This document shows positions 3,688 to 38,994 of a stretch of 64,000 nucleotides of DNA, one piece after another. Source of the DNA: Escherichia phage vB-Eco-KMB23; the sequence record OR525702.1, one strand, 5' to 3'. Both the position numbers and the translations under genes were made by a program. Numbering within the stretch: position 1 is the stretch's first letter; each line of letters begins with the position of its first letter. Under the pieces are notes generated by a model that was not told the DNA's origin, made no database searches, and saw nothing but the letters and a program-made list of their open reading frames with translations.

Positions 3688-3718
3688 GTTGTTTTCTGTA
3701 TCAGTAGTTGATAGTTGT

Positions 3719-3748
3719 ATAGTACCATAGAAGAACAGGGATGTAAAC
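3719..3748 (-). promoter_or_regulatory. T4 early-type promoter-like element (GTTTAC -35, 18-nt spacer, TACTAT -10) on minus strand
   Basis: Plus-strand gtaaac at 3743..3748 and atagta at 3719..3724; same architecture repeated at 7749..7778, 8047..8076, 8378..8407. Confidence 0.5.
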
Positions 3749-3881
3749 AGTTTTGTGAAAAATTTTTTAAAAAGTTTTGGGGAATTCTAGGGCAAGGAGG
3801 GGAAATTAAAGGATAGGATAATATATTATAAAGGGTAGAAACTAAATGATGCCTAGAGAGGCCTGGAAAGGCCTAGATACC

Positions 3882-3910
3882 AAAAAGCCCCAACCTTTTG
3901 GTCGGGACTA
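3882..3910 (-). terminator. intrinsic terminator (10-bp stem with G-U pairs, AAAA loop, T-run) downstream of IP-like gene
   Basis: Minus strand reads AGTCCCGACC-aaaa-GGTTGGGGCT-TTTTT. Confidence 0.6.
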
Positions 3911-3916
3911 AGAATG

Positions 3917-4390
3917 TTATTTGATTTGTTTAGCAGACCAAATGCGGTCTTTAATAATTTTTTGGATGTCTTCAACATACTCGAGAGAATGAGCATGTGG
4001 GTTATCTTTAAAGCTATGAGCACGAGCTAGCTTTTGGCCTTCAGTTTTGATTACTAAAAGCTCTTTAAGGATAGCTTCATATTTGGAGATAATTCCTTTA
4101 ACGATATTTTTTTCTTGTGCGACTTTAGGATCTGCTTTAGGAGCAGGTTTACCCGAAGCCTTTGCAAAAGCAGCGCCAGTAGCAACTAAACTTTTCCAGG
4201 CCATACTAACTGCATTTCCCGTAAATCCTTCCGCTTTCATGTCGCGTGCGAACTGGAATCGTGATTCATCAGAAGCATCTTTGTAAGAATATTTACCCGC
4301 TGCAATGGCTGCTTTTGCGACAGCTTGAATTTCGGTGCTAGATGCTTCATTTAACACCGCTTCATTTAAAAATTGAGTATATGATTTCAT
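3917..4390 (-). CDS. internal-protein-like gene with N-terminal capsid-targeting sequence
   Basis: 157 aa; N-terminus MKSYTQFLNEA resembles the T-even IP leader (MKTYQEFIAE-type), which is cleaved by the gp21 prohead protease; late promoter TATAAATA directly upstream. Confidence 0.7.
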   Translation of the reverse strand: MKSYTQFLNEAVLNEASSTEIQAVAKAAIAAGKYSYKDASDESRFQFARDMKAEGFTGNAVSMAWKSLVATGAAFAKASGKPAPKADPKVAQEKNIVKGIISKYEAILKELLVIKTEGQKLARAHSFKDNPHAHSLEYVEDIQKIIKDRIWSAKQIK

Positions 4391-4430
4391 CTTATTTCCT
4401 GTTTTAATTCGTGGTTTTAATATACTACTA

Positions 4431-4438
4431 TATTTATA
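4431..4438 (-). promoter_or_regulatory. late promoter TATAAATA for IP-like gene
   Basis: Plus tatttata = minus TATAAATA, about 40 nt upstream of ATG at 4390. Confidence 0.6.
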
Positions 4439-4440
4439 CC

Positions 4441-4471
4441 AAAAAGCCCCAACCTTTCAGTCGGGGCTAAG
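4441..4471 (-). terminator. intrinsic terminator (AGCCCCGACT-gaaa-GGTTGGGGCT + TTTTT)
   Basis: 10-bp stem incl. G-U pairs, GAAA tetraloop, followed by T5 on minus strand. Confidence 0.6.
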
Positions 4472-4479
4472 CCTTGCGG

Positions 4480-4770
4480 CAACCTTGTCGGGGTTCCACC
4501 TGCTAAGGCAAGTGTTTGTACGAAACGCCGGGATTCGAACCCGGTTATTAAGTAGTTGACGCTACTCAATATTTTAAAAGGCCATATCTCGACCATATCC
4601 GAACGTTCCGTCAAAAACGCTACTCGGTTTACGGCAAACATATTTCCTCGAATCGATAATTCGGTGCGCCGTTTCTGCTGTGATAGTAAAGAGCCAGAAC
4701 ACAGTAAAACTGTGGGAGGAAACTATACTCCAGGGAACATCAGTCCGACGACTTACCGGTAGCGACCCGG
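4480..4770 (-). ncRNA. candidate structured small RNA region with tRNA-like T-arm
   Basis: No credible ORF; T-arm-like CCGGG-TTCGAAT-CCCGG at 4528..4544 (minus); small hairpins; sits between tRNA-Arg-proximal gene and terminator. May correspond to a T4 small stable RNA locus, not verified. Confidence 0.35.
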
Positions 4771-4774
4771 TTTC

Positions 4775-5125
4775 TTAGTATTCTTTTAAAGCATCAACCT
4801 GTTCACGACGTTTACGCCATAAATCAATTACTTCATACGCAGATTCAGCATTTCGAATTGGACGGCATTTATATAAAGACTTGTGATTTTGATATTGTGT
4901 AGATAACGGAATTTTATCTAAAAGGTCTTTACGTTCAAAATATTCGTAACCATCTAAACCAAATGAACGATTTTTGAGAAATTGCCAATGACCAAATTCG
5001 TTTTCGACATAAACATAATCTGCATGCTGATAAAGCAAATTAATTACACGTTCAGAAATAACAGTATCATTATGATTAAAATAGAATGTTAAATCATGAA
5101 CTACTAAATAAACATTACCTTTCAT
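4775..5125 (-). CDS. hypothetical protein
   Basis: 116 aa ORF immediately downstream (minus) of tRNA-Arg. Confidence 0.6.
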   Translation of the reverse strand: MKGNVYLVVHDLTFYFNHNDTVISERVINLLYQHADYVYVENEFGHWQFLKNRSFGLDGYEYFERKDLLDKIPLSTQYQNHKSLYKCRPIRNAESAYEVIDLWRKRREQVDALKEY

Positions 5126-5143
5126 ATTTTCCTCACTTATAAT

Positions 5144-5219
5144 TGGTCGAGGCAGTAGGGATCGAACCTACGACCCAGGACTTAGAAGGTCCTTGCTCTT
5201 CCTTCTGAGCTATGCCCCG
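5144..5219 (-). tRNA. tRNA-Arg (anticodon UCU)
   Basis: Hand-folded cloverleaf: acceptor CGGGGCA/TGCCTCG, T-arm GTAGG-TTCGATC-CCTAC, anticodon loop CT-TCT-AA, encoded CCA. Confidence 0.8.
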
Positions 5220-5223
5220 TAAT

Positions 5224-5299
5224 TGGGGTGACCGATGGGAGTCGAACCCATGACTACGAGAATCACAATCTCGAGTTCTACCAACTGAACTACGGCCAC
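5224..5299 (-). tRNA. tRNA-His (anticodon GUG)
   Basis: Acceptor GTGGCCG/CGGTCAC, D-arm TAGTTCAGTTGGTAGAACT, anticodon loop TT-GTG-AT, discriminator C, CCA encoded. Confidence 0.75.
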
Positions 5300-5413
5300 A
5301 TTAATACCTACTCCAACAATCATGATGTCTTCACACGAAATTAAGAGAAGAGTGATCAGTTCAACCCCTATAATCGCGTCAAGTAGATATTAATGTGACA
5401 GTTGTCACAAATT

Positions 5414-5488
5414 TGGCGGACGTGATAGGATTCGAACCTATAACCAATCGCTTAACAGGCGATCGCTCTGCCATTGAGCTACACATCC
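5414..5488 (-). tRNA. tRNA-Asn (anticodon GUU)
   Basis: Acceptor GGATGTG/CACGTCC, T-arm ATAGG-TTCGAAT-CCTAT, anticodon loop CT-GTT-AA, CCA encoded. Confidence 0.75.
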
Positions 5489-5492
5489 AAAT

Positions 5493-5579
5493 TGGTGGGG
5501 AGTGGTGGAGTCGAACCACCCGAGTCGCAATGACAATGGATTTACAGTCCACACCGCTACCTCTACGGGATAACTCCCC
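5493..5579 (-). tRNA. tRNA-Tyr (anticodon GUA), long variable arm
   Basis: 87 nt; acceptor GGGGAGT/ACTCCCC, anticodon loop CT-GTA-AA, long variable arm, T-arm GGTGG-TTCGACT-CCACC. Confidence 0.75.
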
Positions 5580-5591
5580 TAATTCATAATT

Positions 5592-5666
5592 TGGTGGCCC
5601 TGGGTGGAATTGAACCACCATCTGGCGATTATGAGTCGCTTGCTTGAACCTTCCAGCTACAGGGCC
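5592..5666 (-). tRNA. tRNA with CAU anticodon (Met, or Ile if lysidine-modified)
   Basis: Acceptor GGCCCTG/CAGGGCC, anticodon loop CT-CAT-AA, T-arm GGTGG-TTCAATT-CCACC. Confidence 0.75.
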
Positions 5667-5667
5667 T

Positions 5668-5743
5668 TGGTGCTGATTGACGGAATCGAACCGCCGACCT
5701 TCTCATTACAAGTGAGTTGTTCTACCTACTGAGCTAAATCAGC
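5668..5743 (-). tRNA. tRNA-Thr (anticodon UGU)
   Basis: Acceptor GCTGATT/AATCAGC, anticodon loop CT-TGT-AA, T-loop TTCGATT. Confidence 0.75.
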
Positions 5744-5748
5744 AAAAC

Positions 5749-5838
5749 TGGCGGAGGCGATAGGATTTGAACCTATGAGTCGCCGGAGCGACTGCCGGTT
5801 TTCAAGACCGGTGCATTAAACCACTCTGCCACGCCTCC
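5749..5838 (-). tRNA. tRNA-Ser (anticodon UGA), long variable arm
   Basis: 90 nt; acceptor GGAGGCG/CGCCTCC, anticodon loop CT-TGA-AA, long variable arm, T-arm ATAGG-TTCAAAT-CCTAT. Confidence 0.8.
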
Positions 5839-5844
5839 AAATAT

Positions 5845-6495
5845 TTATATATTGTTAATTTGATTTAGAATTCTTTTTGCTTGAGTATGACTTACACCAA
5901 TATGCTTAGCATATTTAGATAATTCACCACGTTTAGAAAAATCATATAATTTAGAAATTTCTATTCTTCTTTTTCTTTCATCCGCAGAAACTTTTGATTC
6001 GTTTGCTTTTGCTATTTTACGTTTAGCTTCTTGAGAATGAGTTTTACCAGCAAAGCCATTCTTCATTAATCCATTTGAAGACCATCCTTTTAATTTTCCG
6101 TTAGAATGTGCCTTTTTAACACCCAATGAAATTAATTCGCGTTGCTGATCTGTCATAGGATAATTATTTATATGATCCCATCCACCTTCACCGCCGAGTT
6201 TTAAATTATACACATCTGGTTTATTTAAAAACTCTTCTGTGACAATATTTTTCTCAGCTTCAAGCATAGATTCTTTATCATCAAAATACTCTAATATTTC
6301 TTTAGAAAAATTTTCTATACCATATTTATCTTGGGCTCTTTTTAATAATTTACCAGAACCCATATATCCATCATCTAAATTTTCGGTAGAATGCACACCA
6401 ATATAAATTTTATTATTAATTTTATTTGTTATTTTATAAAGATAAAAATGCATATCAGTCCCTAATAAAGAACTGAGCGTCTCACGACGAGTCAT
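5845..6495 (-). mobile_element. segB: GIY-YIG homing endonuclease (segB-like) embedded in tRNA array
   Basis: 216 aa; N-terminal YKITNKINNKIYIGVHST...GYMGSG matches GIY-YIG motif; gene sits 6 nt from tRNA-Ser and 5 nt from tRNA-Gly. Confidence 0.8.
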
Positions 6496-6499
6496 AAAT

Positions 6500-6573
<74 letters not shown>

Positions 6574-6578
6574 AAATT

Positions 6579-6665
6579 TGGTGCGAGAAGTGGGACTCGA
6601 ACCCACAAGGAAATCATTCCGCAGCATTTTAAGTGCTGTGCCTTTACCAATTTGACCATTCTCGC
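6579..6665 (-). tRNA. tRNA-Leu (anticodon UAA), long variable arm
   Basis: 87 nt; acceptor GCGAGAA/TTCTCGC, anticodon loop CT-TAA-AA, T-arm GTGGG-TTCGAGT-CCCAC. Confidence 0.8.
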
Positions 6666-6666
6666 G

Positions 6667-6739
6667 CTGGGAATAAAGGACTCGAACCTTTGCATCCTGG
6701 AATCAAAATCCAGTGCCTTACCAACTTGGCTAATTCCCA
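6667..6739 (-). tRNA. tRNA-Gln (anticodon UUG), CCA not encoded
   Basis: Acceptor TGGGAAT/ATTCCCA, anticodon loop TT-TTG-AT, T-arm AAAGG-TTCGAGT-CCTTT. Confidence 0.8.
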
Positions 6740-6836
6740 ATTATTAACAAAGGCTCTTAAGCAAGAACCCTTGATGATAGAGGGTATTAATCAGTGCGGT
6801 ATGAGTTAATAATAACAAATAATTCTTAAAGCATAT

Positions 6837-7121
6837 TTACCATTTATGATACGTATTTACGATGCATTCAAGACTTAAAGGATTCTTGAAAATATCATAT
6901 TCAAGAGGACCTTTTTCTGTTTCAATAAAGAAATCAAAATTTACTGTATTAAATTTACGGTCTTCCTTCACTAATTTAACCTGAGAAGATGAACGGTCAA
7001 TGTAAACCTTTTCAACTTCAAAACATGTTAAAATGCCATAATCATCAATCAAGGCTTTAGCTGCTTCTTGATCATATTTATATCCATTTTCAATGGACGA
7101 TACTTTAGCATAAAGAATCAT
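6837..7121 (-). CDS. hypothetical protein
   Basis: 94 aa ORF upstream (minus) of tRNA array. Confidence 0.55.
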   Translation of the reverse strand: MILYAKVSSIENGYKYDQEAAKALIDDYGILTCFEVEKVYIDRSSSQVKLVKEDRKFNTVNFDFFIETEKGPLEYDIFKNPLSLECIVNTYHKW

Positions 7122-7123
7122 TG

Positions 7124-7534
7124 TCAGCCTCTATCAACGATAGCATGAGTATGGGCATTTACGATTTGCCACCAGTCGAAACGATTGAAACCATAATCTG
7201 GTTTATTTTCATTTTCTTTAATGATATCACGCAGCTTATCTTCTGTTTCAGCATACGCAATTAAATCATCATATCCACCACAAGGGTAATAATTATCACC
7301 TGCGAATAAAAGAAAATTTACCTTAGATGGATTTACATAATAATGGTCTTTAGGATATTTAGTTCCTCTCCAATCAGTTACTTCAACATAACGGTAAGAA
7401 AATCCATTTTTACTTTCAATCCAACTCCACGCTTCAAAAGGAGTATTAAAAACTTTATCAGGTATTAAATTACCTTCAAAATGAGAAGGATTTGCATAAT
7501 CCCCAGCATAAACATAATATTCGTTAATACTCAT
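7124..7534 (-). CDS. hypothetical protein
   Basis: 136 aa ORF, adjacent to next gene by 1 nt. Confidence 0.6.
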   Translation of the reverse strand: MSINEYYVYAGDYANPSHFEGNLIPDKVFNTPFEAWSWIESKNGFSYRYVEVTDWRGTKYPKDHYYVNPSKVNFLLFAGDNYYPCGGYDDLIAYAETEDKLRDIIKENENKPDYGFNRFDWWQIVNAHTHAIVDRG

Positions 7535-7720
7535 TTATTCACCTTTAGAAATTTTATCCATAACGATAGCAATTAAACCAATTAAAAATGCTACTACAAG
7601 TGAAAACGCATTTTCTGCTGTAGTTAATAATCCGCATATAAATCCAACAAACATTGAAAAACTAAAAGCAGAAGCAGAAATTGCAATAGCAACATTTCGA
7701 ATTAATTCACAACGTTTCAT
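7535..7720 (-). CDS. hypothetical small membrane protein
   Basis: 61 aa, single hydrophobic helix; preceded by promoter cassette. Confidence 0.5.
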   Translation of the reverse strand: MKRCELIRNVAIAISASAFSFSMFVGFICGLLTTAENAFSLVVAFLIGLIAIVMDKISKGE

Positions 7721-7740
7721 TTTATTCTCCTCGGTAGTTG

Positions 7741-7778
7741 ATAGGGTAATAGTATCACTACCCTATCTAAAAGTAAAC
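7741..7778 (-). promoter_or_regulatory. early-type promoter cassette (GTTTAC-N18-TACTAT) with hairpin gatagggta/taccctatc
   Basis: Plus gtaaac 7773..7778, atagta 7749..7754; conserved core gtaatagtatcactac shared with copies at 8041.. and 8371... Confidence 0.5.
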
Positions 7779-8012
7779 TTATTTTTTACGAAAAATTGAT
7801 TTATTTTCTGCTGCCCATTTTTCAATAACTGCAGCAGGACCAGTAACAACAATTTTATCACCGTAATCTTCTGCGGCGAGTTGACCGAAATTATCTAATG
7901 CATCACGAAGAACTCCATGAGGCATTTCACCCATTTTATCTTTCTTGCCGGTGTAAATAAACTCAACTTTTACATCAGAAGATTCAGCGATAAACTCTTT
8001 GAAAGTTTTCAT
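7779..8012 (-). CDS. internal protein (IP) with capsid-targeting leader MKTFKEFIAE
   Basis: ORF track gives 99 aa from 8078; the conserved IP leader starts at internal Met (8012); alternative start at 8024 (MEIKMKTF...). Confidence 0.7.
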   Translation of the reverse strand: MKTFKEFIAESSDVKVEFIYTGKKDKMGEMPHGVLRDALDNFGQLAAEDYGDKIVVTGPAAVIEKWAAENKSIFRKK

Positions 8013-8040
8013 TTTGATTTCCATTTGGTTTTGTTTTGAT

Positions 8041-8098
8041 AGAGTAATAGTATCACTACTAAAACCCTGTGTAAACAACTTTGTGAAATTATTTTAAA
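8041..8098 (-). promoter_or_regulatory. early-type promoter cassette (second copy)
   Basis: Plus gtaaac 8071..8076, atagta 8047..8052; shares ...gtaaacaactttgtgaaattattttaaat with copy at 8401... Confidence 0.5.
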
Positions 8099-8346
8099 TC
8101 TTCTAATCGTTTCTTCATCTTAGAACCATTTTTAGCAATTTCTCCTGCATCTGAGCATAATGCTAAAAGTGCTTTAACTTTAGTTTGGTCTCCTTTAAAA
8201 GATGAAGGATCGACTGCAGCAGCAAGTTCTTTAATACGAGAGAAAAGACGCTCAGCTTCAGCTAAAGCCATTCCAAGCTTTACTTCCATACCGTGGGAAG
8301 ATTCGGTGATAGTAGTTTTTGTAGCAAACTCTTTGAAAGTTTTCAT
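8089..8346 (-). CDS. internal protein (IP) with capsid-targeting leader MKTFKEF
   Basis: 85 aa; N-terminus MKTFKEFATKT matches IP leader; SD AGGAAA upstream. Confidence 0.75.
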   Translation of the reverse strand: MKTFKEFATKTTITESSHGMEVKLGMALAEAERLFSRIKELAAAVDPSSFKGDQTKVKALLALCSDAGEIAKNGSKMKKRLEDLK

Positions 8347-8370
8347 TTTTATTTTCCTAATTAATTTTGA

Positions 8371-9116
<746 letters not shown>

Positions 9117-9117
<1 letters not shown>

Positions 9118-9842
9118 TATAGTACCTTTAGTGTATTTTTAATTTTAGAAAAAAGTTCTTCAAGAGAACCATCGTTTGTAATTACTAAATCACCATCACG
9201 AATTGGCAATCCAGCTTCTGTAATATGTGTATCATTGGATTTTTGACCAGGACGAACTACATGAATTACTGTAGCACCCATCGCCCTAGCCGCATCCATT
9301 TCATGATCTTGACGAGTATCAGGAACGATATAATAATCATAACCTGAGTTAAATTTATCAAGATAATCTAAAGCAAATAATTTTACCCAATACATGCGGT
9401 CGAAGTTATTAACAATCAAATCCGTACCTAGGGCTTGCATCAGACGACGGACTGACCATTGATCTTCAATATTATTTATAACGTCAGCAATCTTATTAAA
9501 TGCTACGAAAGTAACTGATTCTTTTCCTTCGTCATCAAAAACAAACACACCTTTAATTGGGCTTTTACTATTAAGATAGCAAAATGCTTGTTCCATAATC
9601 GTGATTACTTCTAATTTAGTCAGATTTAAATTAGTCTCACGATCATAGTCAATTCCTTCAAACTCTTTACGAGTTAAGCAAGGATAGTCAGTGTTTGCTG
9701 CAAATACTCCCCATGCATAAGCCAATGCATCCTTAATAGGACCAGCAAGTTGGTATTTAACTGCAGAATAATTATTCATGATAAAATCTGCAGTAGTATC
9801 TTTTCCGCTACGCTTTACACCACTTAAAAAGATTAGTTTCAT
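9117..9842 (-). CDS. 1: gp1 deoxynucleoside monophosphate kinase
   Basis: 241 aa; P-loop GVKRSGKDT near N-terminus; T4 order 57A-1-3-2-4. Confidence 0.9.
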
Positions 9843-32461: not shown

Positions 32462-34568
32462 ATGACTTTATTATCTCCGGGCATTGAGCTCAAAGAAACT
32501 ACGGTTCAAAGCACCGTGGTTAATAACTCTACTGGTACAGCAGCTTTGGCCGGTAAATTCCAGTGGGGTCCTGCTTTTCAAATTAAACAGGTTACAAATG
32601 AAGTAGATTTAGTTAATACTTTTGGTCAACCTACAGCTGAAACTGCTGACTATTTTATGTCTGCAATGAATTTCTTACAATACGGAAATGATTTGCGAGT
32701 TGTGCGTGCTGTCGATAGAGATACCGCTAAAAACTCATCTCCGATTGCCGGTAATATTGAATACACTATTTCTACCCCAGGTAGTAACTACGCGGTTGGA
32801 GATAAAATCACTGTTAAGTATGTTTCAGAAGATGTTGAAACAGAAGGTAAAATTACTGAAGTAGATGCTGATGGAAAAATTAAGAAAATTAATATTCCTA
32901 CCGCAAAAATTATCGCTAAAGCGAAAGAAGTAGGCGAATATCCAGCATTAGGTTCTAACTGGACTGCGGAAATTTCTTCGTCTTCCTCTGGTTTAGCTGC
33001 AGTAATAACTCTTGGGAAAATTATTACTGATTCTGGTATTTTATTAGCTGAAATTGAAAATGCCGAAGCTGCTATGACAGCTGTTGACTTTCAGGCAAAT
33101 CTCGAAAAATATGGAATTCCAGGAGTAGTAGCTCTTTATCCAGGCGAGTTGGGCGATAAAATCGAAATTGAAATCGTATCTAAAGCTGACTACGCAAAAG
33201 GTGCTTCTGCATTACTCCCAATTTATCCAGGTGGCGGAACACGCGCATCTACTGCCAAAGCAGTGTTTGGATATGGACCACAAACTGATTCACAATACGC
33301 TATTATAGTTCGTCGCAATGATGCTATTGTTCAAAGCGTTGTTCTTTCAACAAAGCGTGGTGAAAAAGATATTTACGATAGTAACATCTATATTGATGAC
33401 TTTTTCGCAAAAGGTGGTTCAGAATATATTTTCGCAACTGCACAAAACTGGCCAGAAGGCTTCTCTGGAATTTTAACTCTGTCTGGTGGATTATCATCAA
33501 ATGCTGAAGTAACAGCAGGAGATTTGATGGAAGCTTGGGACTTCTTTGCTGACCGTGAATCTGTTGATGTTCAGTTGTTTATTGCGGGTTCTTGCGCCGG
33601 CGAATCTTTAGAAACAGCATCTACTGTCCAAAAACACGTCGTTTCAATTGGGGATGCTCGCCAAGATTGCTTAGTACTGTGCTCACCACCGCGTGAAACT
33701 GTAGTTGGAATTCCTGTAACTCGTGCTGTTGATAACTTAGTCAATTGGAGAACTGCAGAAACACGTCGTTTCAATTGGGGATGCTCGCCAAGATTGCTTA
33801 GTACTGTGCTCACCACCGCGTGAAACTGTAGTTGGAATTCCTGTAACTCGTGCTGTTGATAACTTAGTCAATTGGAGAACTGCAGCAGGTTCATACACTG
33901 ATAATAACTTTAATATCAGTTCAACCTACGCAGCAATTGATGGTAACTACAAGTATCAGTATGACAAATATAATGATGTGAATCGTTGGGTTCCATTAGC
34001 AGCTGATATTGCTGGTTTATGCGCGAGAACAGATAACGTTTCTCAGACTTGGATGTCTCCAGCTGGTTATAATCGCGGCCAAATTTTGAACGTTATTAAA
34101 CTTGCTATTGAAACTCGCCAGGCGCAGCGCGATCGTTTATACCAAGAAGCTATCAACCCAGTAACTGGCACAGGTGGTGATGGTTACGTATTGTATGGTG
34201 ATAAAACAGCTACTTCTGTTCCTTCTCCATTTGATCGTATTAACGTTCGTCGTCTGTTTAATATGTTGAAAACGAATATCGGACGTAGTTCAAAATATCG
34301 TTTGTTCGAATTAAACAACGCGTTTACTCGTTCATCGTTCCGCACAGAAACTTCCCAGTACTTGCAGGGAATTAAAGCTCTCGGTGGAATTTATGAATAT
34401 CGTGTAGTTTGCGATACAACAAATAACACTCCGTCAGTAATTGATAGAAATGAGTTTGTTGCAACATTCTACATCCAACCGGCTAGAAGCATTAACTACA
34501 TTACCTTAAACTTCGTAGCAACTGCTACTGGTGCAGATTTCGATGAGTTAACTGGTCTTGCAGGTTAA
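32462..34568 (+). pseudogene. 18: tail sheath gene 18 interrupted by 127-bp tandem duplication (frameshift; ORFs 32462..33823 and 33978..34568)
   Basis: Two ORFs in different frames (453 aa + 196 aa); removing one 127-bp copy gives a single 659-codon frame. Confidence 0.85.
33632..33885 (+). repeat. perfect 127-bp direct tandem duplication (2 copies) inside gene 18
   Basis: 33632..33758 identical to 33759..33885 (aaacacgtcgtttcaattggggatgctcg...gtcaattggagaactgcag). Confidence 0.95.
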
Positions 34569-38184: not shown

Positions 38185-38994
38185 ATGCTTAAAGAACAAC
38201 TGATTGCTGAAGCGCAAAAAATTGATGCTTCCGTTGCTCTTGATAGTATTTTCGAATCAGTTAATATTTCTCCGGAAGCAAAAGAAACTTTCGGCACTGT
38301 ATTCGAAGCTACCGTCAAGCAGCACGCCGTTAAATTAGCTGAATCTCATATCGCTAAAATTGCTGAAAAAGCAGAAGAAGAAGTAGAAAAAAATAAAGAA
38401 GAAGCCGAAGAAAAAGCTGAGAAGAAAATCGCTGAGCAAGCTTCTAAATTCATCGACCATCTTGCAAAAGAATGGCTCGCTGAAAATAAATTAGCAGTTG
38501 ATAAAGGCATCAAAGCCGAACTGTTTGAATCCATGCTTGGTGGATTAAAAGAGCTCTTTGTTGAACACAACGTTGTTGTTCCAGAAGAATCAGTTGATGT
38601 TGTAGCTGAAATGGAAGAAGAGCTGCAAGAACATAAAGAAGAATCAGCTCGTCTGTTCGAAGAACTCAATATGCGCGACGCATATATCAATTATGTGCAG
38701 CGTGAAGTGGCATTGAGCGAAAGTACTAAAGATCTGACTGAGTCTCAAAAAGAAAAAGTCTCTGCTCTGGTCGAAGGTATGGATTATTCAGATGCATTCT
38801 CAAGTAAATTGAGTGCCATCGTAGAAATGGTGAAGAAGTCTAATAAAGATGAAAGCACTATTACTGAGGGTATAAATACTCCTGATACTGAAGCAGCCGG
38901 ACTGAATTTCGTCACTGAAGCTGTAGAAGATAAAGCTGCACCTGGTGCAGAAGATATTGTAAGTGTATATGCGAAAGTCGCATCTCGTTTCTAA
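38185..38994 (+). CDS. 22: gp22 prohead core scaffold protein
   Basis: 269 aa, acidic coiled-coil. Confidence 0.95.
   Translation: MLKEQLIAEAQKIDASVALDSIFESVNISPEAKETFGTVFEATVKQHAVKLAESHIAKIAEKAEEEVEKNKEEAEEKAEKKIAEQASKFIDHLAKEWLAENKLAVDKGIKAELFESMLGGLKELFVEHNVVVPEESVDVVAEMEEELQEHKEESARLFEELNMRDAYINYVQREVALSESTKDLTESQKEKVSALVEGMDYSDAFSSKLSAIVEMVKKSNKDESTITEGINTPDTEAAGLNFVTEAVEDKAAPGAEDIVSVYAKVASRF

Follow-up and report, generated by a model that had tools for sequence, protein, structure and literature searches.

The 64,000-nucleotide (nt) stretch of the Escherichia phage vB-Eco-KMB23 genome that we analyzed (record OR525702.1; 64 kb, here called the window) belongs to a Tequatrovirus (T4-like) genome, syntenic with T4 from e.2 through gene 1 and beyond, and carries three minus-strand genes whose products begin with leaders of the type found on the internal proteins (IPs) of T-even phages. 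An initial annotation had assigned such leaders to three open reading frames (ORFs), and all three proved to be present, at 3917..4390 (157 amino acids (aa); MKSYTQFLNEAVLNEASS), 7779..8012 (77 aa; MKTFKEFIAESS) and 8089..8346 (85 aa; MKTFKEFATKTTITESS). When all six frames of the window were scanned for ORFs of at least 40 aa headed by M-K-[ST]-[YF]-x-[EQ]-F, with 200 shuffles as the control, exactly these three were recovered, all on the minus strand, and none was found in the shuffles. The genes are as follows.

8089..8346, minus strand: ip5, 85-aa precursor; predicted gp21 cut after ITE15; predicted mature protein of 70 aa, 7.5 kDa, isoelectric point (pI) 9.2
7779..8012, minus strand: ip6, 77-aa precursor; predicted cut after IAE10; predicted mature protein of 67 aa, 7.4 kDa, pI 6.5
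3917..4390, minus strand: gene for a 157-aa candidate internal protein of the phrog_2280 family; leader MKSYTQFLNE-AVLNE with tandem LNE sites

The leaders match the capsid targeting sequence (CTS) as it has been defined experimentally. For encapsidation, the first 10 residues of T4 IPIII (MKTYQEFIAE) are enough, and they also package foreign proteins; targeting depends on residues 4 and 7 and processing on residue 8 and Glu10, and the propeptides of the internal proteins, 10 to 19 residues long, are removed by gp21 (PMC9026906). The targeting residues are F4 and F7 in both Ip6 and Ip5, and Y4 and F7 in the 157-aa protein. Cleavage motifs of the form (L/I)-x-Glu are present in each precursor, with predicted cuts at IAE10 in Ip6, at ITE15 in Ip5 (compare ITE19 in T4 IPI) and at LNE10 and LNE15 in the 157-aa protein. 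With predicted cuts marked by a slash, the leaders read as follows.

Ip6: MKTFKEFIAE/SS, an exact fit to the T4 rules
Ip5: MKTFKEFATKTTITE/SS, which parallels the T4 IPI leader MKTFKEFTSTTTPVSTITE/A
157-aa protein: MKSYTQFLNE/AVLNE/ASS, with Y4, F7, L8 and E10 and a second LNE five residues on

The components expected to act on such leaders are encoded farther along the window, which includes genes for gp20, gp67, gp68, gp21, gp22 and gp23 (gp67 matches PF17634 in Pfam; gp68, with no Pfam match, was assigned from its position). In T4, gp22 is the docking partner for CTS-bearing proteins (PMC9026906).

37516..38154, plus strand: gp21 prohead serine protease (PF03420 Peptidase_S77, E = 1.5e-111), expected to remove leaders after (L/I)xE
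38185..38994, plus strand: gp22 scaffolding core protein (PF25623 T4_CASP, E = 9.5e-90)

Judged by sequence identity, ip5 and ip6 are already known and named internal-protein genes. Ip5 is 100% identical over its full length to the ip5 product of phage RB15 (Z35082) and to ipV of Yersinia phage PST, and is assigned to phrog_3499 (“internal head protein”; E = 1e-49); its predicted mature form, beginning SSHGMEVK..., is basic and lysine-rich. Ip6, whose ATG is nested within a mechanically called TTG-initiated ORF (7779..8078), is likewise 100% identical over its full length to PST ipVI, shows 73 to 78% identity to “Ip6” of VR7 and JK1, belongs to phrog_8111 (“internal virion protein”) and has the predicted mature N terminus SSDVK.... 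An AlphaFold2 (AF2) model of Ip6, with a mean predicted local distance difference test score (pLDDT) of 81, predicts a small beta-alpha-beta-beta-alpha-beta (ferredoxin-like) fold, for which Foldseek returned generic ferredoxin-like matches in the PDB, the best at a nonsignificant E of 0.047, with no IPI* among the 50 matches listed. Our literature searches found no function for Ip5 or Ip6.

Both genes lie in the classical polymorphic ipI locus, which adjoins 57B and is one of two such IP loci, the other being next to e. This polymorphic locus, with ip5 and ip6 of phage RB15, was reportedly first described by Repoila and colleagues in 1994 in EMBO J. In some close relatives, the 57B-proximal slot holds a T4-type ipI in place of ip5, and a 47%-identical relative of Ip5 adjoins the lysozyme gene e in ~228 records. 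Gene 57B carries the label “RNA ligase” in RefSeq annotations of relatives. Its product in the window matches Acb1, a nuclease that counters the cyclic oligonucleotide-based antiphage signaling system (CBASS), and the ipI locus therefore directly adjoins a known antidefense gene. The locus also holds three elements of the promoter-early stem-loop (PeSL) type, cassettes reportedly described by Arbiol in 2010.

8420..8875, minus strand: 57B, Acb1 (anti-CBASS nuclease) family (PF23474 Acb1, E = 2.6e-60), directly upstream of ip5
8365..8435, minus strand: PeSL-type element upstream of ip5, an early sigma-70-like promoter (GTTTACA ... TACTAT) with an embedded stem-loop; repeat family D2
8034..8104, minus strand: PeSL-type element between ip5 and ip6, the reference copy of D2
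7736..7806, minus strand: PeSL-type element between ip6 and trna.4, a D2 copy at 61%

The third gene is in neither classical IP locus, and its separation from the other two by the tRNA array, also part of the initial annotation, was borne out: 10 Rfam-confirmed tRNAs (5147..6739) and a GIY-YIG segB-like gene lie in between. We consider its product, alone among the three, to be probably a new and under-annotated internal protein. The protein is filed by PHROGs under phrog_2280 (“unknown function”), and its homologues, found by tblastn in 511 phage records, were hypothetical or unannotated in 40 of the 40 sampled; among the cluster members, only the homologue of Klebsiella phage KPKp is named “Internal head protein.” Phage vB_EcoM_G4507 encodes an identical protein, and the family extends across Tequatrovirus, Carettavirus, Jiaodavirus and T4-like phages of Yersinia and Klebsiella. 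When 1.84 billion representative proteins were searched exhaustively with a profile, only 13 relatives came up, none of which gave a functional lead; one match (P0087, E = 3.7e-5) is a weak one to a long repetitive protein without the leader. Every full-length relative, down to E = 1e-4, keeps a leader of the form x-x-x-(Y/F)-x-(E/Q/D/S)-F-L-x-E, as in the distant homologues that begin MKFKEFLAE, MLKFNEFLAE, MINFSDFLNE and MKSFSSFLNE. Compared with six homologues, the 157-aa gene has a ratio of nonsynonymous to synonymous substitution rates (dN/dS) of 0.04 to 0.11, with dS values of up to 2.

In its predicted mature form, the 157-aa protein has 142 aa (15.5 kDa, pI 9.6), a net charge of +8 and 20 lysines and is all-helical; the N-terminal peptide of the processed protein is predicted to be ASSTEIQAVAK or AVLNEASSTEIQAVAK. 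In the AF2 model (pLDDT 74), a Pro/Lys linker connects a small helical domain at the N terminus with a long helical hairpin at the C terminus, and Foldseek searches of the PDB and BFVD with this model recovered only the protein's own family. Separately, protein P0013 (94 aa, from a 2.9-kb Logan contig) is trna.3-like at its N terminus (PF26894) and continues with the final ~34 residues of the 157-aa family (...NPHAHSLEYVEDIQKIIKDRIWSAKQIK), an apparent recombinant of two genes that lie ~3 kb apart in the window.

Alignment with T4 placed the 157-aa gene on a clean insertion between rnaC and the e.8 promoter. The site is empty in both T4 and PST, and the terminator TTAGCCCCGACCGAAAGGTTGGGGCTTTTTGGTAT occurs there just once in T4, from which it follows that the insertion spans about 3907-4465 (559 bp). 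The initial annotation had described an autonomous, insertion-like module in which the gene has a late promoter to itself and terminators on either side; both of these features were found, and T4 represents the unoccupied site. The elements of the cassette, in the order of transcription, are as follows.

4519..4656, minus strand: homologue of rnaC (T4 species 1 RNA), from the T4 alignment; the cassette is inserted just downstream and an rnaD homologue lies upstream
4436..4471, minus strand: upstream copy of a 36-nt direct repeat, the rnaC-distal intrinsic terminator (hairpin 4445-4468 and T-run), leading straight into the late promoter
4431..4438, minus strand: T4-type late promoter TATAAATA, 40 nt upstream of the ATG of the 157-aa gene, followed by an AGGA Shine-Dalgarno sequence at 4397-4400
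3877..3912, minus strand: downstream copy of the 36-nt repeat, the terminator of the 157-aa gene (hairpin 3886-3909) and the right-hand insertion junction

The two copies of the repeat (family D7) are 92% identical at a spacing of 559, and both score as intrinsic terminators. This arrangement is not peculiar to the window. The motif (N)ATAAATA lies 34 to 48 nt upstream of the start codon at 13 of the 14 loci that bear a homologue, in Tequatrovirus, Carettavirus and Jiaodavirus; at a Yersinia phage locus (L014), the late promoter precedes the adjacent upstream leader-bearing gene and not the 157-aa homologue. The same layout of terminator, late promoter and leader-bearing gene is also seen in Jiaodavirus, where TATAAATA is at −44, in Carettavirus phiE142, where AATAAATA is at −37, and in the remaining tequatrovirus loci.

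At four loci in relatives (L006, L008, L005 and L012), a second cassette directly follows that of the 157-aa gene, with its own late-type promoter and terminator and a gene for a 187-aa protein beginning MKTYAEFLTE/AAKLP...; this gene occurs in 165 records, in all of which it is named hypothetical. In Yersinia phage fHe-Yen9-01, a leader-bearing gene of 189 aa lies directly upstream of the 157-aa homologue. PHROGs places the 157-aa and 187-aa proteins together in phrog_2280; a profile-profile comparison (hhalign) of the two aligned the 12-residue leader only, and BLASTP gave an E value of 7.8. A “TPDLY” stretch, seen by eye in both the 177- to 178-aa Klebsiella and Yersinia forms and the 189-aa Yersinia neighbor, hints at domain shuffling. 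With up to two leader-bearing genes present in relatives, the rnaC-e.8 site thus behaves like a third IP locus that can hold 0, 1 or 2 genes. At the two-cassette loci (L006, 4474-4600 and 5163-5200; L005, 3465-3591), the terminator at the end of the first gene is again GGTTGGGGCTTTTT, the second gene has another hairpin there (CCCTATCTAAATGATAGGGCTTTTTGGTAT), and both rejoin the common downstream sequence at ...CTTTTTGGTATCTAGGCC, which suggests recombination at the T-run/GGTAT junction.

Taken together, these observations make it probable, in our judgment, that all three genes encode internal proteins of the T-even type that are packaged, processed and injected, with a likely role against host defenses. 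Packaging, processing and injection seem very likely for Ip5 and Ip6 and likely for the 157-aa protein. The CTS on each precursor would dock onto the gp22 scaffolding core during prohead assembly, and gp21 would then cut after (L/I)-x-Glu, at IAE10 for Ip6, at ITE15 for Ip5 and at LNE10, LNE15 or both for the 157-aa protein, which would leave mature proteins of 7.4, 7.5 and 15.5 kDa, respectively. These would stay beside the DNA inside the head and accompany it into the next host cell before phage gene expression. There, by analogy with Ip1, Ip2 and Ip3, each of which inhibits a distinct type IV restriction enzyme of the GmrSD family although the three are mutually unrelated in sequence (PMC12373910), each would most likely neutralize a particular host nuclease or other immediate-early defense directed against DNA containing glucosylated hydroxymethylcytosine. 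For any one of the three proteins, we put a type IV restriction target at slightly less than an even chance. The PeSL-type repeats that bracket ip5 and ip6 would allow shuffling of these genes as cassettes, and the 157-aa gene would be gained or lost, as a strictly late, terminator-insulated cassette, by recombination between the duplicated terminator copies.

Several results weigh against this interpretation. The mature parts share no significant BLASTP similarity with one another, as had been judged by eye, and are unrelated to T4 IPI, IPII and IPIII, with all BLASTP E values at least 0.1; this last comparison, one of two tests that the initial annotation had named as able to overturn it, gave no match to a characterized internal protein. 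Nor was there significant similarity to PST IpIV, and searches of Pfam, NCBIfam and PDB sequences with all three proteins returned nothing above threshold. The two models examined, those of the 157-aa protein and Ip6, have no significant match among solved folds, and nothing that we found ties any of the three proteins to GmrSD or to another specific target. As a consequence, the functional proposal rests on analogy. Mature Ip6, at pI 6.5, is not basic. The 157-aa protein has a further LKE site, at residue 110, where gp21 might also cut, and its family is strongly conserved, with a near-invariant C-terminal half, which is atypical of an effector in a fast arms race. Upstream of ip5 and ip6, TATAAATA is absent within 90 nt, where only the PeSL early promoters occur, so late expression of these two genes would have to come from read-through, perhaps started at the gene 1 late promoter (9473-9480), or from continued use of the early promoters. 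Finally, for none of the three proteins did our literature searches turn up virion proteomics, N-terminal sequencing or injection data. The virion study of phage phiR1-RT using liquid chromatography-tandem mass spectrometry was considered as a source of evidence for a homologue, and phiR1-RT was not among the 40 matches listed for the fHe-Yen9-01 homologue.

Some of these points fit other explanations. The 157-aa protein might be an unpackaged late cytoplasmic or structural accessory, its leader resembling a CTS through shared ancestry or through recombination with ip leaders. Its position outside both classical IP loci, its treatment as a protein of unknown function by PHROGs and almost all depositors and the lack of proteomic evidence in the literature are all compatible with this, as is the fact that the DNA of its leader is not copied from ip5 or ip6, the two genes that alone are joined by a 29-nt repeat (family D8). 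However, the four mapped CTS positions and the (L/I)xE site are kept across the whole family, even in members below 40% identity; expression, judged from the promoter, is strictly late and matches the time of prohead assembly; the neighboring gene at the same site in relatives bears the same leader; and in T4 the first 10 residues alone package foreign proteins (PMC9026906). We therefore think an unpackaged accessory very unlikely. A role confined mainly to the head, with the packaged proteins serving as lysine-rich counterions for DNA condensation and packaging or as helpers of core and prohead assembly, as has been suggested for T4 IPIII, also appears unlikely. Mature Ip5 and the 157-aa protein are indeed basic and lysine-rich, the lysines of internal proteins are the only ones that contact DNA phosphates in T4 heads (PMC3012670), polyheads accumulate in IPIII-minus and IP0 mutants (PMC9026906), and a conserved partner would account for the strong purifying selection on the 157-aa family, with its near-invariant C-terminal half, better than an arms race would. 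Against this, the genes are dispensable and polymorphic, the 157-aa gene being absent from T4 and PST and the IPs of the ipI locus varying among relatives; Ip6 is neutral; and all three T4 internal proteins with an assigned function are inhibitors of type IV restriction.

The proteins might be injected and act on something outside type IV (GmrSD-like) restriction, such as other nucleases, abortive-infection sensors or targets in host takeover, as with the copackaged Alt ADP-ribosyltransferase, which shows that a packaged protein can have a nonrestriction role (PMC9026906). The mature regions are unlike Ip1, Ip2 and Ip3, the 157-aa and Ip6 models match no solved structure significantly, and ip5 and ip6 sit beside the Acb1 (57B) anti-CBASS gene, all of which would suit a different target. 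Yet all three internal proteins whose function has been solved act on enzymes of the GmrSD family, and because these three are mutually unrelated and nevertheless share that target class, dissimilarity is no argument against the same class of target here. We regard a target outside type IV restriction as possible, although it is not the option that we favor, and return to the interpretation that all three are internal proteins with a probable antidefense role. The packaging, cleavage, injection and antidefense activity of the three proteins are what we infer from these leaders, motifs and gene contexts.

A more speculative extension concerns the rnaC-e.8 site, which we tentatively propose to be an unrecognized third IP locus holding 0 to 2 strictly late, terminator-insulated cassettes, a “late-promoter stem-loop” counterpart of PeSLs, for injected proteins that are larger (15 to 20 kDa), basic and helical and form a narrow family confined to phages. 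The strong purifying selection on this family, unlike the hypervariability of the ipI-locus genes, would then point to a conserved host target or to a defense class other than the GmrSD variants blocked by Ip1, Ip2 and Ip3, a proposal that we hold with considerable doubt.

Injected internal proteins act ahead of any phage gene expression. As the T4 internal proteins are all specific inhibitors of type IV enzymes, each further internal protein is a candidate antidefense protein, and the finding that Ip1, Ip2 and Ip3 are all GmrSD inhibitors sharpens the functional guess for new ones. Of the roughly 500 sequenced phages that carry the 157-aa family, many are therapeutic candidates, and the family is nearly always called “hypothetical.” Recognizing its members as probable injected proteins would improve annotation and supply screens of the kind that solved Ip2 and Ip3 with a small set of testable candidates, while the late terminator-promoter cassette adds a small piece to the picture of how T4-like phages swap internal-protein genes. 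Overall, what the initial annotation observed and how it read the three genes hold up; the region is ordinary biology plus one under-annotated candidate internal protein, and it holds no surprise for a T4 specialist.

As regards the surrounding genome, region 3700-8500 is matched by 1164 phage records, with a best identity of 96%. The minus-strand order is that of T4, namely the e.x genes, rnaC and rnaD, the tRNA array with segB, trna.2 to trna.4, the IP locus, 57B, 57A and gene 1. Inside the rnaC homologue, ARAGORN called a 94-nt “tRNA-Lys(ttt)” (4518-4611, minus strand), which has no match to the Rfam tRNA model at the gathering score, so the window has 10 tRNAs and not 11. Compared with T4, the set includes tRNAs for His, Asn, Tyr and Met and lacks those for Pro and Ile. 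The GIY-YIG/NUMOD3 homing endonuclease gene within the array (segB-like, 216 aa; 5845-6495, minus strand) lies between tRNA-Ser and tRNA-Gly, unlike segB of T4, which is between tRNA-Arg and tRNA-Ile. A 116-aa ORF (4775-5125, minus strand) with no Pfam match, labeled “hypothetical” in relatives, is inserted between tRNA-Arg and the rnaD homologue, a position that is empty in T4; it is another small indel of this hyperplastic region.

Elsewhere in the window, four consecutive, overlapping e.2-e.5-like ORFs (355-843, 840-1202, 1184-1576 and 1545-2159) occupy 355-2159 on the minus strand and share a similar C-terminal motif (FITECRKLK, FVSDCRKIK, FVKESRCKSQN and FVKECREYVK); the first three look membrane-spanning by eye, and the four are probably a tandem family of paralogues. 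The tail sheath gene 18 contains a perfect 127-bp tandem duplication (33632-33885; 2.0 copies, 100% match), and as 127 is not a multiple of 3, the resulting frameshift splits gp18 into ORFs of 453 aa (32462-33823) and 196 aa (33978-34568), with the peptide ...VVGIPVTRAVDNLVNWRTA encoded twice. Since gp18 is essential, the duplication is most likely an assembly artifact and not biology.

Comparison with known systems brings out what is familiar in this region and what is not. The ip5 and ip6 genes of the window are the same genes as RB15 ip5 and ip6 and PST ipV and ipVI, in the same order adjoining 57B, and show no substantive difference from them. Their surroundings are likewise of a known kind, in that a repeat of ~70 nt before each of ip5, ip6 and trna.4 consists of a stem-loop and a TTTACA-N17-TACTAT early promoter of the PST/T4-type consensus. 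PeSLs have been proposed to shuffle genes as cassettes in the hyperplastic regions of T4-like phages and have been described in early and middle versions; “late promoter” does not appear as a term in the 2014 PeSL paper by Comeau (PMC4122927). The 157-aa cassette resembles a PeSL cassette in being bounded by repeated regulatory stem-loops and in its presence/absence polymorphism, but what is repeated is an intrinsic terminator, and the promoter joined to it is late (TATAAATA) rather than early.

PST IpIV was considered as a possible counterpart of the 157-aa protein, to which it is equal in length (157 aa) and similar in leader type (MKTYQEFITE), and was rejected because BLASTP gave an E value of 3.6 in the mature region and the locus is different, IpIV being encoded at the ipII position next to ipIII; the equal length is a coincidence. 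With T4 IPI to IPIII, all three proteins have in common the type of CTS leader, the (L/I)xE motif, the gp21/gp22 machinery and small, mostly basic mature forms. The Ip5 leader parallels the 19-residue leader of IPI, those of Ip6 and the 157-aa protein parallel the 10-residue leader of IPII and IPIII, and the mature 157-aa protein is basic, like IPII and IPIII. The 157-aa gene differs from the T4 genes in that it lies in neither T4 IP locus and is driven solely by its own late promoter.

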